Shown here piece by piece: positions 3,321 to 11,551 of a stretch of 35,430 bases of DNA. Location of the stretch: positions 1 through 35,430 of the IMG/VR virus record IMGVR_UViG_2923302340_000005; one strand, given 5' to 3'. A program made the translations under genes and the position numbers. Under the pieces are notes generated by a model. The model made no database searches. It saw nothing but the letters and a program-made list of their open reading frames with translations, and was not told the origin of the DNA. The stretch is from a virus. Its lineage: Duplodnaviria; Heunggongvirae; Uroviricota; Caudoviricetes. The stretch's first letter is position 1. Every line of letters starts with the position of its first letter.

Positions 3321-3524
3321 ATGGCAATTAAGCATTTTCCCGTCGTTCGCTTTACCTCCAGAGGGCGCGAATACGAGGTCGACGAACGCCTGATTACCAC
3401 TATCGACAAACATCGTTCGGAAAAGGATGCACACCACATCTACCTCACTGACGGCACTTACTTCTGCGCCACTAATGTGGCGCGGGTAAACCTTATCCGA
3501 CAGGTACAGGAGCCACGCAGATGA
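3321..3524 (+). CDS. Hypothetical early protein
   Basis: 67-aa ORF with strong RBS (AAAGGGGG); stop overlaps the next start. Confidence 0.55.
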   Translation: MAIKHFPVVRFTSRGREYEVDERLITTIDKHRSEKDAHHIYLTDGTYFCATNVARVNLIRQVQEPRR

Positions 3525-5080: not shown

Positions 5081-7909
5081 ATGACGGCAGAGTACATCAG
5101 GGACTGGCAACAACCGCGCCACGCAGTGGGACGTGAAGGAACGGGGATCCCCGTTCCTGAATCTGCGCTTTCCTCCTGGCTGGATGCCTACCGGGCAGAG
5201 AACGAGCGCCGCCAGGAAATGGCTGATGCGGCGTTCTCCGCCACGCCGCTGGGCAACCTGATTAATAAAAGCCTGGATGCACAGGAAAAACAGGACAAAA
5301 CCATCACACTGGCAGGAGACGCCAGAAAACAGGCACGCGGCGCGGTGGATGAAGCCATGGCCTCGCTGCGCCTGCTGCCGTCCTATCTGCGCGATCCGCT
5401 TATTCGCCACCTCTCCTTCCTGCGCAAAAAACAGGAAGTCGATCGCCGGAAAGGCAAAAAGAGCTGGCAGGCTGAACGCTACGCGCGCGGAACCCTGCGC
5501 AAAATATTCGAACGTCTGGACCGCACCGACCACCGCTGGCTGACACCGGGTTATCGCTCCCTTGCCGGACGCGAACGCCTGGATGATTTGCTTTACCTGC
5601 CGCAGCTCAACAAGCACCAGATACAGACGCTGGCCACCATGACGGCGGCGATGTTCAGCAGCACCTTCGAAAAACTCTGCGATGGCTTTGGCGCGACTGA
5701 TGGCGAACTGACCATGGATGTAACGCTGAAGGCGTATCAGATGCTGGCCCGCATGGCGTTACACCTGCACGCCATGCCTCCACATTATGACGCACTGACA
5801 ACAGACAAAGACCGGAGGAACGAACCGGACACGGAGCTGCTGCCGGGCGCAATCCTTCGCCTGACCTGTGCGGAATGGTGGAAACGCAAACTGTGGCTGT
5901 TACGTTGCGAGTGGAGAGAAGAACAACTCCGCGCCGCCTGTCTGGTTTCCAGAAAAACATCACCCTATCTGAGCCAGGACGCGTTAAGCGAGTTTCGCGC
6001 ACAGCGCGAGAAAACCCGCGACTTCCTGAAGAGCTTCGAACTGGAAAACGAAGACGGCTTCACGATTGATCTCGAGACAGTGTATTACGCGGGAGTAAGT
6101 AACCCGGTTCACCGTAAGGCAGAAATGATGGCCACCATGAAGGGACTGGAACTTCTGGCCGAAGCCCGTGGCGACAGAGCGGTGTTTCTGACTGTCACCT
6201 GCCCGTCAAAATACCACGCAACAACGGAGAACGGTCATCCGAACCCCAAATGGAACGGGGCCACCATGCGCGACTCCAGCGATTACCTGGTTAACACGTT
6301 TTTTGCGGCGGTCCGCAAGAAACTGAACCGCGACGGCCTGCGCTGGTATGGCATCCGCACGGTGGAGCCTCACCATGACGGCACCGTGCACTGGCATATG
6401 ATGGTCTTTGCTCATCCGGAAGAAATCGACAGCATCGTGGCCATCACCCGCGATATTGCCATTCAGGAAGACCGCCACGAGCTGGGCAATGATATTACTC
6501 CGCGCTTTAAGGTGGAGTATGTCGACGGCTCAAAAGGCACGCCAACCAGCTACATCGCCACCTACATCGGAAAGAACCTGGACAGCCGCGCCGTGGATGG
6601 CATCGACCCGAAAACGGGCAAACCACGCGTTGACCACGAAACCGGAAAATCAATGGCCGAGAGCGTGGAACGCGCCATCGGCTGGGCGCGCCTTCACCGG
6701 GTCCGCCAGTTCCAGTTCTTTGGTATCCCCTCCCGTCAGGTGTGGCGTGAACTGCGTCGCCTTGCCAGCCAGATGGCACGCAACCCCGAAGGCCCGCAAC
6801 GGCTGAAGGATGACGCAATGGATGCGGTTCTTGCTGCCGCTGATGCCGGATGTTTTGCCACCTACATAGAGAAACAGGGCGGCGTACTTGTTCCACGCAA
6901 AGACTACCTGATTCGCACCGCCTACGACCTCGCAGATGAGCTGAACGATTACGGCGAACAGAGCGTACAGATTTACGGGATCTGGTCGCCACTCATCGGG
7001 GAATCCTCCCGTGTGTGCACGCATCCGGATAACTGGAAGCTGGTAAGACGCAAACCGGAAGCGGAAGACAGCGCCCGCGAAAATGGTTTTGACCTTCAGG
7101 GCGGCCCTGCCGCCCCTTGGACTCGTGGCAATAACTGTCCCCGTGTACAGGAAACGGACAACAACGGGATAGAACAGCCGGAAGAACGGCCAGCACCGTG
7201 GCCGCAGCTCCCTGACGGCGTTGAAGTGAACGAATGGATGCGCTCACTGAAACGGCACGAACGCCGGGCGCTGATGCGTTCGCTTCGGCTTCGTGACAAA
7301 CAGGCAAAAAACAGCAGTGATGAAATGCAGAGCTGGACACAGAGCCGCAAACAGCAGCGGCCTTTGCCTGATAACCACGAATTACTCGCTAAAGAATGGC
7401 GGGAATCTGCCGAATCTCTCGGCCTGCATATCGGTGAACAGCAGATGCAGCACCTGTTACGGGGCGGCAGCCTGTACGTTGACGGCAGCATCATTGCACC
7501 GCAGGGATTTGAAATTGTACGCAAACCGGATACCCGCCCGGACAGCCGAATCACGCAGCTCTGGCAGCGCCTGAGCCGTAATCACGGCGTAAGCAGCACA
7601 GAGATCCGCCATAACCCGGTCGCCAGCTATCTGGAACAACTGGGGGCATCAGACCCCGAAGCCGCCGCACGTCTGGCATCCACACTTCAGCAGGACCAGA
7701 ACACCATGAAAACCCCCGTTACCGTGCTTTCTGACATGCTGCGCGCCATCCGTGACACAGAGCACGCACAGAGAATCAGTGAAACCACTGAACGCGCCCA
7801 CCGCAAAGCAGACCTGCTGCGGGGTAGCCTGACCAGTGGAAACAAAAAACAGACAGAAACGGGACTCACAAATCTCGTAAATGAGCAAAAAACGCGCCAT
7901 AAAACATGA
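5081..7909 (+). CDS. A: Rolling-circle replication initiator, P2 gpA-like (HUH endonuclease)
   Basis: 942 aa; HUH-type metal motif HWHMMVF and paired catalytic tyrosines SYIATYIGK, characteristic of P2 A / phiX174 gpA Rep proteins; carries a long charged C-terminal extension relative to P2 A. Confidence 0.85.
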   Translation: MTAEYIRDWQQPRHAVGREGTGIPVPESALSSWLDAYRAENERRQEMADAAFSATPLGNLINKSLDAQEKQDKTITLAGDARKQARGAVDEAMASLRLLPSYLRDPLIRHLSFLRKKQEVDRRKGKKSWQAERYARGTLRKIFERLDRTDHRWLTPGYRSLAGRERLDDLLYLPQLNKHQIQTLATMTAAMFSSTFEKLCDGFGATDGELTMDVTLKAYQMLARMALHLHAMPPHYDALTTDKDRRNEPDTELLPGAILRLTCAEWWKRKLWLLRCEWREEQLRAACLVSRKTSPYLSQDALSEFRAQREKTRDFLKSFELENEDGFTIDLETVYYAGVSNPVHRKAEMMATMKGLELLAEARGDRAVFLTVTCPSKYHATTENGHPNPKWNGATMRDSSDYLVNTFFAAVRKKLNRDGLRWYGIRTVEPHHDGTVHWHMMVFAHPEEIDSIVAITRDIAIQEDRHELGNDITPRFKVEYVDGSKGTPTSYIATYIGKNLDSRAVDGIDPKTGKPRVDHETGKSMAESVERAIGWARLHRVRQFQFFGIPSRQVWRELRRLASQMARNPEGPQRLKDDAMDAVLAAADAGCFATYIEKQGGVLVPRKDYLIRTAYDLADELNDYGEQSVQIYGIWSPLIGESSRVCTHPDNWKLVRRKPEAEDSARENGFDLQGGPAAPWTRGNNCPRVQETDNNGIEQPEERPAPWPQLPDGVEVNEWMRSLKRHERRALMRSLRLRDKQAKNSSDEMQSWTQSRKQQRPLPDNHELLAKEWRESAESLGLHIGEQQMQHLLRGGSLYVDGSIIAPQGFEIVRKPDTRPDSRITQLWQRLSRNHGVSSTEIRHNPVASYLEQLGASDPEAAARLASTLQQDQNTMKTPVTVLSDMLRAIRDTEHAQRISETTERAHRKADLLRGSLTSGNKKQTETGLTNLVNEQKTRHKT

Positions 7910-7958
7910 AGTGCGCACAAAACAGGCAAAAGCGGGATTTGAAAATCCCGTAAACGAT
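7857..7958. promoter_or_regulatory. Imperfect direct repeats straddling the A stop; candidate parC-like site or operator
   Basis: gggactcacaaatctcgtaaatga (7861-7884) and gggatttgaaaatcccgtaaacga (7934-7957) match at 18 of 24 positions; the second contains the perfect palindrome gggattt..aaatccc. Confidence 0.4.
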
Positions 7959-7985
7959 TAATTAATCAACATAAGGAAAAGCGAC

Positions 7986-8945
7986 ATGAAAATTTGTATC
8001 GACGACGGCTCCACCAACATCAAGCTGGCATGGACTGAGAACGGCGAACGCCGCAACGCCATCAGCCCGAACAGTTTCAAGTCGGAATGGTCTGCGCCGT
8101 TCGGTGGCACGCAGCCCGCGAACTACATGCTTGATGGCGTGCGCTATGGTTTTGATCCGGTCAGCGATCGCTTTGTCCAGACGACCGACACGCAATACCA
8201 GTACAGCGATGTGAATGTAATCGCCATTCACCACGCGCTGGTCAAATCAGGCATCACACCACAGGAAGTGGATGTGGTTGTCACCCTGCCACTGAGCGAA
8301 TATTTCGACACAAACGCACAGCCGGACATGGCCAACATCAACCGCAAAAAAGCGAACGTTATGCGCCCGGTGGAGTACCAGAACGGCAAAGCATTCACTA
8401 TCCGTAACGTACGGGTTATGCCTGAATCCATTCCGGCTGGCTTTAAAGCACTGGCTGACATGAGTCCGTTTGAATCCCTGCTGATTGTGGATTTAGGCGG
8501 AACCACGCTGGATGTGGCAAAGGTTCAGGGACAACTGGCAGGTATCAGCCAGGTGTTTTGCGATCCACACGTAGGCGTTTCCCTGATGGCCGATGCCGTA
8601 CTGTCGGTGATGGCTACTAACGGTATGCGTACCAGCCACCACATCGCCAATACCATTATCGAACATCGCCATGATGAAGCCTGGCTGCGCCAGCACATCC
8701 ACAATGACGCGCATTACGCCAGCCTGATGGCGGTTATTCGTGAAAAGGAAGAAACACTGAAACAACGCGTGATCCGCGCACTGGCGGGTTTTTCGGGTTA
8801 CGGGCGGGTGATGGTTGTCGGTGGCGGGGCGGAGATTGTGGCACCCGCTATCCGCGAAGCCTGCGGAGTTAATGCGACTTTCATCGCGGACGGGGTGCCA
8901 CAGTTTGCTCTGGTTAATGGGCTGTACGCAATGGACAAGGAGTAA
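7986..8945 (+). CDS. parM: ParM/StbA-like actin-type segregation ATPase
   Basis: 319 aa; strong resemblance to plasmid R1 ParM as recalled from memory along the whole length (IDDGSTNIKL, ISPNSFK, YSDVNVIAIHHAL, VMPESIPAG, LIVDLGGTTLD, SGY..VMVVGGGAE, LVNGLY). AAGGA RBS. Confidence 0.85.
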   Translation: MKICIDDGSTNIKLAWTENGERRNAISPNSFKSEWSAPFGGTQPANYMLDGVRYGFDPVSDRFVQTTDTQYQYSDVNVIAIHHALVKSGITPQEVDVVVTLPLSEYFDTNAQPDMANINRKKANVMRPVEYQNGKAFTIRNVRVMPESIPAGFKALADMSPFESLLIVDLGGTTLDVAKVQGQLAGISQVFCDPHVGVSLMADAVLSVMATNGMRTSHHIANTIIEHRHDEAWLRQHIHNDAHYASLMAVIREKEETLKQRVIRALAGFSGYGRVMVVGGGAEIVAPAIREACGVNATFIADGVPQFALVNGLYAMDKE

Positions 8946-8949
8946 ACCA

Positions 8950-9261
8950 ATGACGACACCAACCAGACGGATAAGTTTCTATCTGAAGCCCGCCGCCGTC
9001 AAGAACGAAAGCGAAGCATGCGCCTGGCTGGACAGCCTTACACCAGAAGCCCGCAAAAGCGGCCAACGCGTGGCTTTTCTGGCCGGGCTGGCACTTCTGA
9101 AAATGAATCCGGCAGAGGCTTACCGACTGGCTGCATGGGCTGATGGCGAGGCGTTATCAGTGACACAAACCAGGACAGAACGCCCCGTGCCACAGCCAGC
9201 ACCAACCGCACAGATAACCAGTCAGATGGCCGGAAATATCCGGGCGTTATTTCCCGAATAA
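8950..9261 (+). CDS. parR: ParR-like adaptor protein (putative)
   Basis: 103 aa directly downstream of the parM-like gene; AAGGAG 7 nt upstream; resembles R1 ParR (RRISFYLKP..., VAFLAGLAL, C-terminal LFPE). Track ORF starts further upstream inside parM. Confidence 0.65.
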   Translation: MTTPTRRISFYLKPAAVKNESEACAWLDSLTPEARKSGQRVAFLAGLALLKMNPAEAYRLAAWADGEALSVTQTRTERPVPQPAPTAQITSQMAGNIRALFPE

Positions 9262-9268
9262 CACAACG

Positions 9269-9288
9269 TCAGGGCGAGTTCGCCCTGA
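9269..9288. repeat. Perfect palindrome TCAGGGCGA-GT-TCGCCCTGA, left bracket of the Ea22-like pair
   Basis: Read directly; shares its stem sequence with the palindrome at 10474-10499 on the other side of the pair. Confidence 0.6.
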
Positions 9289-9324
9289 TCTCCACCTCAG
9301 AACATAAACAAGGAGACCGACTTA

Positions 9325-9924
9325 ATGAGCGAAATCAACTATCAGGCACTGCGTGAGTTAGCAAAACAGGCAACACAGGGCGAATGGGTCGCATTTATTT
9401 CGCCGGGCAAATACGGCACGTACGCCGTGCACACACCAGGAGATAATCATCACGGAGATATTGTCGACTGGCCTGGATTCGACGAACAGAAAAACGCAGA
9501 GAACAACGCTCGTTATATCGCAGCTTTCAACCCTGAAGTAGTGCAGGCTCTGTTGGATGAACGAGAAGCCCAAAGCAAACGCATTGCAGAGCTGGAGGCT
9601 AATTTCACGGAGCTGGCAGCGGAGAATGCCGCAATGAAGCTGTTTATCAGGGGCAGTTGCTATGTATTTGATGGAGAGCAGGATGAAATATCTGACGCGT
9701 ATATCTGCGCAACAGACGGAGGAATGCCACAAACCCCAGCCACCGACGCTTTTCTGGCTGAAGTACGGGCGCAGGGCGTGGAGATGCTGGCAAAAAATCA
9801 TCAGAGTATCGTCAATGCACTTAAGGGAGATTCTTTATTTTCTGATGATGAATACCGACATGCAGCTATTGTTTCCGCAGCTGTATATTTCGCCGCAGAG
9901 CTTCGCAAAGGAGGCAGCCAGTGA
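9325..9924 (+). CDS. Ea22/Ead-like family protein, paralog 1
   Basis: 199 aa; N-terminus MSEINYQALRELAKQA and ALLDEREAQSKRIAELE coiled-coil motif; AGGAG RBS. Confidence 0.55.
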   Translation: MSEINYQALRELAKQATQGEWVAFISPGKYGTYAVHTPGDNHHGDIVDWPGFDEQKNAENNARYIAAFNPEVVQALLDEREAQSKRIAELEANFTELAAENAAMKLFIRGSCYVFDGEQDEISDAYICATDGGMPQTPATDAFLAEVRAQGVEMLAKNHQSIVNALKGDSLFSDDEYRHAAIVSAAVYFAAELRKGGSQ

Positions 9925-10460
9925 GCAAAATTGACTATCAGGCACTACAAATGGCAGCAGAACGTGCAATTCCGGCAATGGAACGCCTGTTAATATTGCC
10001 AGTTGATGATGATTTGTTAAGCGAACAGGAACTTAAAGATTACGGTGTGGATATTGACGCGATCAACACCTTCAGAATTCTGGCTGGACCGGAAGACATG
10101 CTGGCACTGCTGGATGAACTGGAAACAGCAAAAAAACGCATCGCTGAACTGGAAAAAATCGCCACTGACTATGCACTTAAATTCCAGAAAGCACAGGACG
10201 CATTAAAGTATGCCGCTTTGCTGCATAGCAGGACGGCGCAACAAACAAATAATTTTGCAGTATCGCTTCCGGACATAAGCGAATATTTCATTAATGACGT
10301 ATTTCAGCCCTTGCGATACGAGCGGGATGTTGAAAGAGCCATCATAAAGGCTGGCGGAAAAGCATTGTGGCAGGAGAAGCACGAGGAAAGAACGCATCAG
10401 CTAAGTGATGTAAATAGTGGATGGTTATGCCCACTGACAGAAGGTAAAAAGAACACCTGA
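9921..10460 (+). CDS. Ea22/Ead-like family protein, paralog 2
   Basis: 179 aa; GTG start overlapping the upstream stop (GTGA), AAGGAGG RBS; N-terminus MSKIDYQALQ and ALLDELETAKKRIAELE; divergent C-terminus. Confidence 0.55.
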   Translation: MSKIDYQALQMAAERAIPAMERLLILPVDDDLLSEQELKDYGVDIDAINTFRILAGPEDMLALLDELETAKKRIAELEKIATDYALKFQKAQDALKYAALLHSRTAQQTNNFAVSLPDISEYFINDVFQPLRYERDVERAIIKAGGKALWQEKHEERTHQLSDVNSGWLCPLTEGKKNT

Positions 10461-11026
10461 TTTCCTCTCAAACCAGGGCGATAATCGCGCATCGCCCTGC
10501 TGCACAATAGTGCACAAATTTGCACAATTTTTTTGAACGACTTTTTGCCCTTCCAGCCCGCGTGGCGGCTGGATCCGTCAAGGATCCGTGCGTGCACAAA
10601 AAAACGCGTTTTTTCTGCGCGCAGGTGACGGGGGAACAGCCCGCGCTTCAGGGGGTAAATAGCATTCCCTGAACGATGTCGCAGAGACACAACAGAATGG
10701 CCATATTTCTCACGCTGAGCATGAAAAAGGCGTGAGGGCTTTTGATTTGATGGGGTGAAAGGTAAGGCCGTCAAAATCGCACTGAGGCAGCGAGGACATA
10801 CAGTCAACGTGGTGGGATTGCGTAAGAGTCTGACCGTCGATGGTGGCGATAAACTGGAAGGCGTCGTGAAATTATCTGATTGATACAGGAGCTGGAGAGC
10901 CGGGGCATAAATTTTTTATGCCCCGGCGAAGCAGCAGACAAGCGAAGCGCGTCAGTGATGCGGCACCTTGCCGACCACACTTCATAAGTGCAAAATACGA
11001 GCAAAGAAATCAATGGAGGCTGTTTT
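10461..11026. other. Structured noncoding region; candidate cos packaging site
   Basis: No credible ORF on either strand. Contains palindrome CAGGGCGAT / ATCGCCCTG (10474-10499), TGCACAA three times at exact 10-bp spacing (10501-10527) plus a fourth at 10593, palindromes AAAAAACGCGTTTTTT (10599-10614) and CTGCGCGCAG (10615-10624), a GACGGGGGAA segment (10627-10636) reminiscent of the P2/186 cohesive-end sequence, and a 12-bp perfect stem CCGGGGCATAAA / TTTATGCCCCGG (10900-10926). Confidence 0.4.
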
Positions 11027-11551
11027 ATGGTCATTAATTACAAGCAGTTACGAGAAAAACGAGATCAGGTAAAGGAGAGTTTTCGCCGCAATGAAGACCT
11101 GACCCCACTTGTACGAATTGCCCAGGGAATTGTTGATGCTTATGAAATCTCTCTGGAGCTGCCATCACAGACATGGACGGATAGCGACGGTAATCGCCAG
11201 CATTACGTTTCATGCGGACTGGAAACAACTGAAGGGTTTCGCAGAATGCCTTTATCTCAGATCCCTGCCGCTACCCCCAAAGCAAGGGGCGGCAATGATG
11301 AGCGAAAACTGATTTTCAGCATTGAGACAGTGGTTGACGACACACCTGGCGAAGTCGCCTTCGTGCATACTCCTGTTTCGATCGCAATGTATAACGATGA
11401 AATACAGGTTCGCGTTAATAATAATATCGTGCCACTTAAAGAAGGTAATTCACCATACACCACCGTTTGTGAAGCCATTCAATATTACGTTCTCTCTGAA
11501 ATTGATAATCTCAAGCCTGACGGCACCCAGAAAATGGTTCAACTCTGGTAA
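11027..11551 (+). CDS. Hypothetical accessory protein
   Basis: 174 aa from ATG 11027 with GGAGG 7 nt upstream; no recognisable family; convergent with portal Q. Track ORF starts at GTG 10988. Confidence 0.55.
   Translation: MVINYKQLREKRDQVKESFRRNEDLTPLVRIAQGIVDAYEISLELPSQTWTDSDGNRQHYVSCGLETTEGFRRMPLSQIPAATPKARGGNDERKLIFSIETVVDDTPGEVAFVHTPVSIAMYNDEIQVRVNNNIVPLKEGNSPYTTVCEAIQYYVLSEIDNLKPDGTQKMVQLW

Follow-up and report, generated by a model that had tools for sequence, protein, structure and literature searches.

What does a plasmid-type segregation cassette use as its cis-acting site when it is carried by a phage that integrates into the chromosome? We have examined this question in a 35,430-nucleotide stretch of DNA from the IMG/VR virus record IMGVR_UViG_2923302340_000005 (the whole stretch is called the window below), which is a P88-type (genus Xuanwuvirus) P2-like prophage with 95–97% identity to phage P88 and its relatives over positions 7400–9400. 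In this window, gene A for the rolling-circle replication endonuclease (5081..7909; 942 amino acids (aa); Pfam Phage_GPA, E = 1.8e-130) is followed by parM for an actin-like ATPase and parR for its adaptor, and then by two Ead/Ea22-like genes, with A, parM and parR all on the plus strand. The initial annotation had pointed out two imperfect direct repeats around the A stop codon as a candidate centromere or operator, and our analysis supports this reading. The two repeat units are probably ParR-binding sites, which would serve as the operator and as a minimal parC of a type II ParMRC cassette; this assignment is based on sequence comparison, in which the core, orientation, spacing and distance to the parM start have been found to be kept in four diverged lineages, and with only one class of ParR.

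The repeat pair and the proteins of the cassette

The two 24-mers on which the candidate site had been based are found as described, at 7860–7883 (CGGGACTCACAAATCTCGTAAATG) and 7933–7956 (CGGGATTTGAAAATCCCGTAAACG), with 18/24 positions identical and at a distance of 73 bp. The repeat finder (family D1) gives a longer direct repeat of 42 nt on the plus strand, composed of a distal unit at 7843..7884 and a proximal unit at 7916..7957, which are identical at 32 of the 42 positions and again 73 bp apart. This 42-nt repeat is statistically real: none of 2000 shuffles of 7830–7985 reached 32 matches (the maximum was 28), and none of 706 overlapping 156-nt segments over the 35-kb window reached this number elsewhere (the maximum was 31).

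The core of each 42-nt unit is an 18-bp dyad, which is CGGGATT-N4-AATCCCG in E. coli. The proximal dyad (site 2; 7933..7950, CGGGATTTGAAAATCCCG), which we propose as the main operator, is perfect; a perfect palindrome had been noticed here from the beginning, and its arms are 8 bp (CGGGATTT-GA-AAATCCCG) rather than the 7 bp first assigned. The distal dyad (site 1; 7860..7877, CGGGACTCACAAATCTCG) has two mismatches in this window; in nearly all close relatives, the first copy is also a palindrome with 7-bp arms, CGGGATTCACAAATCCCG. The distal copy lies within the last codons of gene A, whose TGA stop (7907–7909) falls in the central spacer between the units (7885..7915; variable in sequence and constant in length), and the distal unit plus the spacer encode the last ~22 codons of A (7843–7909). 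The second copy lies between the genes, its end being 35 nt 5' of the parM ATG (7986). A dyad search of the whole window allowing up to three mismatches gave no third copy, the sole extra match (with three mismatches) being at chance level.

In its proteins and gene order, the cassette is a type II ParMRC locus, and the repeated cis site that such a locus has upstream of parM corresponds to the two 42-nt units, with the dyads at ATG-126 and ATG-53 with respect to the parM start codon. ParM (7986..8945, plus strand; 319 aa) matches the Pfam families StbA_N (PF06406; 3.8e-82) and ParM C-terminal domain (PF21523; 1.3e-68), and is aligned with the R1 ParM structures 1mwk/4a62 over its full length (residues 2–316; E of about 1e-92); its identity to plasmid ParMs is only 40–52%. 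The parR gene (8950..9261, plus strand), which starts 5 nt past the parM stop, encodes an adaptor of 103 aa with a match to Pfam Plasmid_stab_B (PF10784; 2.9e-24). A search of PDB with a single ParR sequence gave no match, and a profile of 17 ParRs was needed to detect pB171 ParR (2jd3), which was then matched over the whole protein with E = 3.4e-14. On the basis of this homology and of published descriptions of ParRs (PMC9426499, PMC5016525), the protein is predicted to be of the ribbon-helix-helix type. In the alignment of the 17 ParRs, which includes plasmid ones, R6, F10, P14 and N96 are invariant and F101 is nearly so, and both the N-terminal strand and the C-terminal tail, N..LFP, are conserved. 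Against a 93%-identical relative (L090), the ratio of nonsynonymous to synonymous substitution rates (dN/dS) is 0.13 for parM and 0.10 for parR; the two genes are intact and under purifying selection, and their products look functional to judge from these sequences. We have also noticed that parM and parR of these prophages are often mislabelled as 'recombinase' or 'peptide transporter', with the cis site unmarked.

Conservation of the pair and its association with one ParR class

Examination of the repeats in relatives that carry the same cassette, which had been proposed as a check of the candidate site, has given a positive result. ParM homologues of intermediate identity were all found in P2-like prophages, just 3' of gene A. 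In Hafnia (L091; ParM 62%), a distal site TGGGATTGAGGAAACCCA (3372–3389) and a proximal site CGGGTTCATTAAATCCCA are spaced by 73 bp; in Plesiomonas (L094; ParM 63%), CGGGACAACAAAAACCCG (3369–3386) and CGGGACAACACTAACCCA are spaced by 72 bp; and in a Hafnia metagenome-assembled genome (L183/L184; ParM 95%, ParR 74%), CGGGATTCATGAATCCCA (L183 725–742) and CGGGATTTGAAAATCCCA are spaced by 73 bp. When this window is included, the distal site starts 125–132 nt and the proximal site 52–60 nt before the parM ATG. In order to avoid post hoc motif fitting, we searched for the best pair separated by 72–73 bp with a consensus derived from E. coli alone (CGGGATTNNNNAATCCCG). The best hits start at ATG-129 in Hafnia L091 (22/28), at ATG-132 in Plesiomonas L094 (20/28) and at ATG-125 in L183 (26/28), the pair of this window starting at ATG-126; the pair is the top hit of each 8-kb locus, and its score was reached by 0 of 2000 dinucleotide shuffles in each lineage. 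The pair is carried by only four lineages, two of which are close to each other. When we looked for further diverged carriers, the search of genome contigs gave only relatives whose ParM is at least 98% identical, the search of viral contigs with the Hafnia or Plesiomonas ParM gave almost nothing, and the metagenome scan gave E. coli-type copies or plasmid classes of ~50% identity and no new lineage with the dyad pair.

The DNA between the dyads is 54–55 bp long in all lineages and cannot be aligned between them. Three conserved islands are visible in the five-lineage alignment, namely GGGA..CC, CGGG..A.CCC and an ATTAAT box 5' of the Shine-Dalgarno sequence; CGGG and CCC of the proximal dyad are invariant in it, and the cross-lineage dyad consensus is YGGG-N10-CCCR. 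On the upstream side, the A protein of Plesiomonas is homologous to that of E. coli only up to about residue 700, and an unrelated open reading frame (ORF) of 167 aa lies between A and parM in Hafnia. In view of the diverged ParM, the non-homologous upstream ORF and the lack of any alignment between the sites, we consider that the sites travel with parMR and not with gene A; as read from these loci, the upstream ORFs simply run into the par module until a stop codon is encountered.

These comparisons bear on two explanations that would take the repeats away from ParR. One is that they are an element of phage replication, such as a part of the ori, A-protein sites or a lagging-strand (single-strand) origin, and the location of one copy inside gene A, where P2-family origins lie, and the typically hairpin-like form of single-strand origins are consistent with it. 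However, the homologue of the nick site mapped in P2/186 is found at 7105–7140, about 740 bp 5' of the repeats (GCCCCTTGGACTCGTGGCAATAACTGT here, GCGCCTCGGAGTCCTGTCAATAACTGT in P2), and this place inside gene A is probably the ori of this phage; in addition, the Hafnia sites are parted from A by the unrelated 167-aa ORF, the A tails that hold site 1 are non-homologous between lineages, and the hairpin is not conserved, so that a role in replication is highly improbable. The ~250 A codons downstream of the nick-site homologue are, as a separate observation, not conserved between lineages.

The other explanation supposes a neutral duplication or a recombination scar at the cargo junction, which would have no function and might be, for example, the leftover of an alternative 3' end of A. 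The +1 frame of the second copy reads TKQAKAGFENPVND followed by a stop and resembles KKQTETGLTNLVNE of the first copy, and the region is mosaic, since the A tail is identical to that of L090 at synonymous sites while parM differs at a synonymous divergence (pS) of 0.23. The peptide likeness, however, results from the DNA repeat itself, and a functionless scar is extremely improbable when the core, the spacing and the distance to parM have been kept in places where the surroundings have diverged and site 1 lies in unrelated ORFs. The specific candidate of a relic of an alternative A C-terminus was rejected, because site 1 is located in non-homologous ORFs of the other lineages.

The distribution of ParR classes follows that of the pair. 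All carriers of the dyad pair encode a ParR with the N-terminal beta-strand TRR[IV]SFYL, including both allele classes of E. coli mentioned below. P2-like prophages of Serratia and Enterobacter have an NRKISFYL-type ParR and different upstream repeats, and plasmid ParR classes have their own repeats, which are 11-bp A/C-rich iterons in the R1 type and T-rich iterons or other palindromes in others; the pair scan gave background scores both for NRKISFYL-type prophages and for the plasmid classes. Each ParR class thus has its own family of upstream repeats, a correlation that is expected if the repeats are cognate ParR sites.

This correlation is also important when we consider that the dyads may bind a different protein, either a phage regulator (C repressor, Cox, Ogr-type activator or A protein) or a host factor that controls cargo genes. 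In favour of this, the sites mark the boundary of the early operon with the cargo region, a place that holds separately controlled genes in P2-like phages (tin and old in P2, and p95 with its LexA site in 186), and binding by ParR is itself a prediction. Nevertheless, the pair occurs only with the TRR[IV]SFYL-type ParR; P2-like prophages with the other ParR class have other repeats in spite of possessing A, ogr and other regulators; the pair is not present in the regions 3' of A in P2 and 186; and class-specific repeats were found 5' of parM for every other ParR class examined. We therefore regard a regulator other than ParR as unlikely.

Two observations on the ParR classes themselves should be mentioned. 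First, in the NRKISFYL-type prophages (L095 3380–3480, L098, L096 and L101), a candidate parC consists of an inverted pair of ~20 nt with a separation of about 26 nt, GGGAAC.A.ATAGAAAAAT / ATTTTTCT.TTTC.TTCCC, and a GCCGTTTAAACGGC-like palindrome and two occurrences of ATTTCATGACC are located 3' of it. Second, ParRs of E. coli P88-type prophages (8950–9261; loci L005–L084) are divided into two diverged allele classes that are about 50% identical overall, with an identical N-terminal strand and C-terminal NIRALFPE tail and an unrelated linker; across both classes, the dyads do not change and the ParM identity is 98% or more. The split may have arisen by recombination, or cross-talk between prophages in the same cell may have been selected against; as many as 4 cassette copies have been found per E. 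coli genome.

Within the E. coli-type group, we collected about 135 copies from IMG/VR and metagenomes, and calculated diversity from about 116 haplotypes. The distal core is the palindrome CGGGATTCACAAATCCCG in most of these copies; of the two arm changes of site 1 in this window, C at 7865 is a frequent polymorphism, and T at 7875 is present in none of the about 135 related sequences. Both changes are non-synonymous in A (F to L and P to L), indicating a mutual constraint between the site and the A tail. At the proximal core the arms are kept and the 4-nt centre varies (TCAG, TAAA and TGAA). Nucleotide diversity (pi) is 0.03–0.05 in the dyad arms (0.031 in those of site 2) and 0.24 in the hypervariable 4-nt centre of site 2; it is 0.066–0.095 at third codon positions of parM and A, and 0.081 in the central spacer 7885–7915, which is about the synonymous level. 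Conserved arms with a hypervariable centre are the pattern expected of a dyad protein site, to which this modest signal would point.

Conserved arms with a variable loop also fit a hairpin, and the dyads could then act as nucleic-acid structures, namely as a terminator or attenuator that ends the early (A) operon, or as leftward (minus-strand) terminators. A terminator scan does flag 7950..7933 on the minus strand, with a 7-bp stem and the tail CTTTTGCCTG, a T-rich run follows each hairpin, and the folding energy of the E. coli-type sites is -10 to -12.5 kcal/mol (z of about -2 to -3.5). In Hafnia L091 and Plesiomonas L094, however, pairing is limited to GGG and CCC, so that the stem shrinks to 3 bp around a loop of 10 nt and is not followed by a U-tail, and the position and spacing have still been kept. 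Furthermore, the plus strand lacks a U-run, no minus-strand gene ends near the dyads, a scan against Rfam gave no family match, and we see no rationale for two terminators at a fixed spacing of 72–73 bp. A hairpin function is thus very unlikely.

Tentative promoter, proposed mechanism and the phage setting

We tentatively assign a par promoter to 7939..7969 on the plus strand, composed of a -35-like TTGAAA (7939–7944) inside site 2, a 16-nt spacer and ATTAAT (7961–7966). The latter belongs to the conserved block ATTAATCAA (7961–7969), is located 20 nt 5' of the ATG, and is invariant in the five-lineage alignment; the equivalent -35 position of Hafnia and Plesiomonas is likewise inside the proximal dyad. 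The parM Shine-Dalgarno sequence, AAGGAA (7973..7978, plus strand), was read from the sequence and is kept as AAGGA or AAGGG in relatives. From the overlap of the proximal dyad with the -35-like hexamer we infer an operator as in R1, whose par promoter is repressed by parC-bound ParR (PMC2241845). Since no terminator is found between A and parM, read-through from the early operon is also possible. Directly 3' of the proximal dyad, 7951–7960 (TAAACGATTA) is a near-palindrome with a central CG, like operator cores of the LacI/GalR family; this likeness is probably coincidental, because it is not conserved in L183, Hafnia and Plesiomonas.

If ParR is the binder, a mechanism can be proposed in which its stoichiometry, autorepression and centromere activity are all predicted features. 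The half-sites of each 18-bp dyad are centred ~11 bp, or about one helical turn, apart, and would accommodate two ParR dimers side by side, provided that this ParR is a ribbon-helix-helix protein like its pB171 homologue. The geometry is compatible with the one ParR dimer per roughly 10–11 bp known in R1 and pSK41 (PMC2241845, PMC5016525). The dyads, which are 72–73 bp or seven helical turns apart, are on the same face of DNA, and ParR at both of them may form one phased complex over roughly 115 bp. In E. coli-type copies, the A-tracts of this segment are phased in the manner of R1 parC, which is curved. ParR on the proximal dyad would autorepress the parMR operon, and the clustered C-terminal tails of the bound ParRs would capture the ends of ParM filaments. 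The flanks of the two units are alike within each lineage (17 nt upstream in E. coli and AAAYG downstream), and therefore the functional unit may exceed 18 bp. The usual parC/operator of a type II locus lies 5' of parM and extends over the promoter region (PMC2241845, PMC5016525), and for pB171 ParR, binding to no more than two 10-bp repeats has been reported (PMC9426499). A two-unit site thus has a precedent; inverted-repeat cores and a 73-bp separation do not.

Several points weigh against the assignment of the pair to ParR as operator and minimal parC. Direct repeats are the targets of all ParRs characterised so far (PMC9426499), and the cores are inverted here; with inverted cores and only two units, a full ParR ring of the kind proposed for R1 or pSK41 may fail to assemble. 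E. coli-type copies and R1 parC have A-tracts with a 10.5-bp phasing, and Hafnia and Plesiomonas lack it. A strict consensus scan called no sigma-70 promoter here, and the operator role therefore rests on the non-canonical -10, ATTAAT. The distal dyad of this window has two arm mismatches and, with a distal site degenerate in part, this copy may be less effective than those of relatives. Single arm polymorphisms are common in the population (7865 and 7949), the change from C to T at 7949 being found in about a fifth of haplotypes, and single arm changes are thus tolerated. Lastly, a mostly chromosomal prophage that integrates has no obvious need for a centromere.

This last point concerns the setting of the cassette. 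The junction between the A end and parM was found in 1289 of 5426 complete E. coli genomes (about a quarter); the matching places are mostly chromosomal (1463/1789), and the plasmid matches listed are weak partial matches to plasmid parM genes. A low-copy extrachromosomal element is the usual setting of type II loci, without being a molecular criterion for them, and the setting here is an integrase-encoding prophage. Two records deserve separate mention. In one (L187; NZ_CP148288.1, 1–34461), a complete P88-type genome with integrase, A, parMR and structural genes is registered as a 34.5-kb circular E. coli 'plasmid'; this single record of its type may represent phage DNA that was assembled as a circle after excision or during replication, or may hint at carriage in a plasmid-like state. 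The other (L003; NZ_JBQPOM010000071.1, 'Vagococcus sp. WN89Y') is a 226-kb Firmicute-labelled contig with a ParM 98% identical to the E. coli type; this record probably contains contamination or bears a wrong label.

The more interesting question is what purpose a centromere serves in a phage that integrates. One far-reaching answer, which we hold to be rather doubtful at present, is that the integrating phage has a fully functional, autoregulated ParMRC whose centromere is the two phased dyads and which acts on something other than a resident plasmid. Possible roles would be segregation or positioning of an excised or replicating phage circle, during the establishment of lysogeny, in a carrier state or in rolling-circle replication, or alternatively partition-type incompatibility against related incoming phages or plasmids. 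If this answer is true, ParM filaments would have a new role, and the design of the type II centromere, with two sites composed of inverted repeats, would be new as well. Our literature searches gave no paper in which the cis site of P88-type phages (P88/Xuanwuvirus) is defined or the role of their parMR is described, and a study of 2025 on chromosome-encoded ParMs is concerned with Firmicute systems, with the words phage, prophage and Escherichia absent.

Downstream of the cassette, the segment from parR to the portal gene (9325–11551) is a variable cargo slot, in the position occupied by tin/old in P2, which holds here the two Ead/Ea22-like genes and an unassigned ORF of 187 aa; in relatives (L090, L091, L094, L095 and L096), it holds a DUF3800 gene, KAP NTPase, HicAB or Y1 transposase. 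A G+C-rich hairpin with an 8-bp stem (TCAGGGCGAGTTCGCCCTGA, 9269–9288) is located 8 nt past the parR stop and has a U-run on neither strand; it may act as a terminator of low strength or belong to a module junction.

Comparison with known partition systems

What is known of type II partition comes from a small number of plasmids, in which the centromere is an array of direct repeats. If ParR binds the pair described here, the locus would offer an example of ParR recognising inverted instead of direct repeats, a compact and easily mutated model for the minimum number of ParR sites that captures a ParM filament, and a handle on the reason for which a phage integrated in the chromosome has retained the segregation motor of a plasmid. 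The assignment would also correct the annotation of P88-type prophages, with regard both to the cis site and to parM and parR.

Among the known systems, R1/NR1 parMRC (stbAB) has the same order of cis site, parM and parR, with ParM 46–52% identical to plasmid ParMs and ParR of the same family, PF10784; as in R1 parC, the cis site is bipartite, lies 5' of parM and overlaps the promoter region, and phased A-tracts are shared only by the E. coli-type copies. R1 parC, however, is 159 bp long and consists of two blocks of five 11-bp direct A/C-rich iterons around a 39-bp promoter core (PMC2241845), and iterons of the R1 type have also been read in one of our loci (L086). The idea of the initial annotation that the pair is a short version of R1 parC did not hold in this respect, because two 18-bp dyads take the place of 11-bp direct iterons around the promoter: there is no array of 11-bp direct iterons at the repeats and no similarity to the R1 iterons of L086, and the two 42-nt units around 18-bp inverted repeats are both upstream of or on the -35. 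We also tried 7840–7960 as an R1-like array of ~10.5-bp A-tract iterons and rejected it, since Hafnia and Plesiomonas lack the phasing, which reaches significance in the E. coli-type copies (p<0.001) and also in R1 parC; it is a lineage-specific feature only. Further differences are the ParR beta-strand, RRISFYL here and RTIAFKL in R1, and the carriage by an integrated prophage instead of a low-copy plasmid.

The par1 locus of pB171 has the closest solved ParR (2JD3) and a binding site 5' of parM that is reported to be short (PMC9426499). Its parC1 differs in that the repeats are direct and adjacent, in contrast to dyads 73 bp apart, and the identity between the ParR sequences is low. The operators of the ribbon-helix-helix proteins Arc, Mnt and CopG have half-sites about one helical turn apart, which are bound by a dimer of dimers, with conserved outer arms and a free centre. 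These proteins are pure repressors without a motor-binding tail, and the analogy is limited to the binding geometry. Finally, P1 with parABS, N15 with sopAB and the phage-plasmid D6 with StbA, whose StbA/ParM is 48% identical to the ParM here, are likewise temperate phages with a plasmid-type partition cassette; these three are maintained as plasmids and need partition, whereas P88-type phages encode an integrase and are mostly chromosomal in E. coli.

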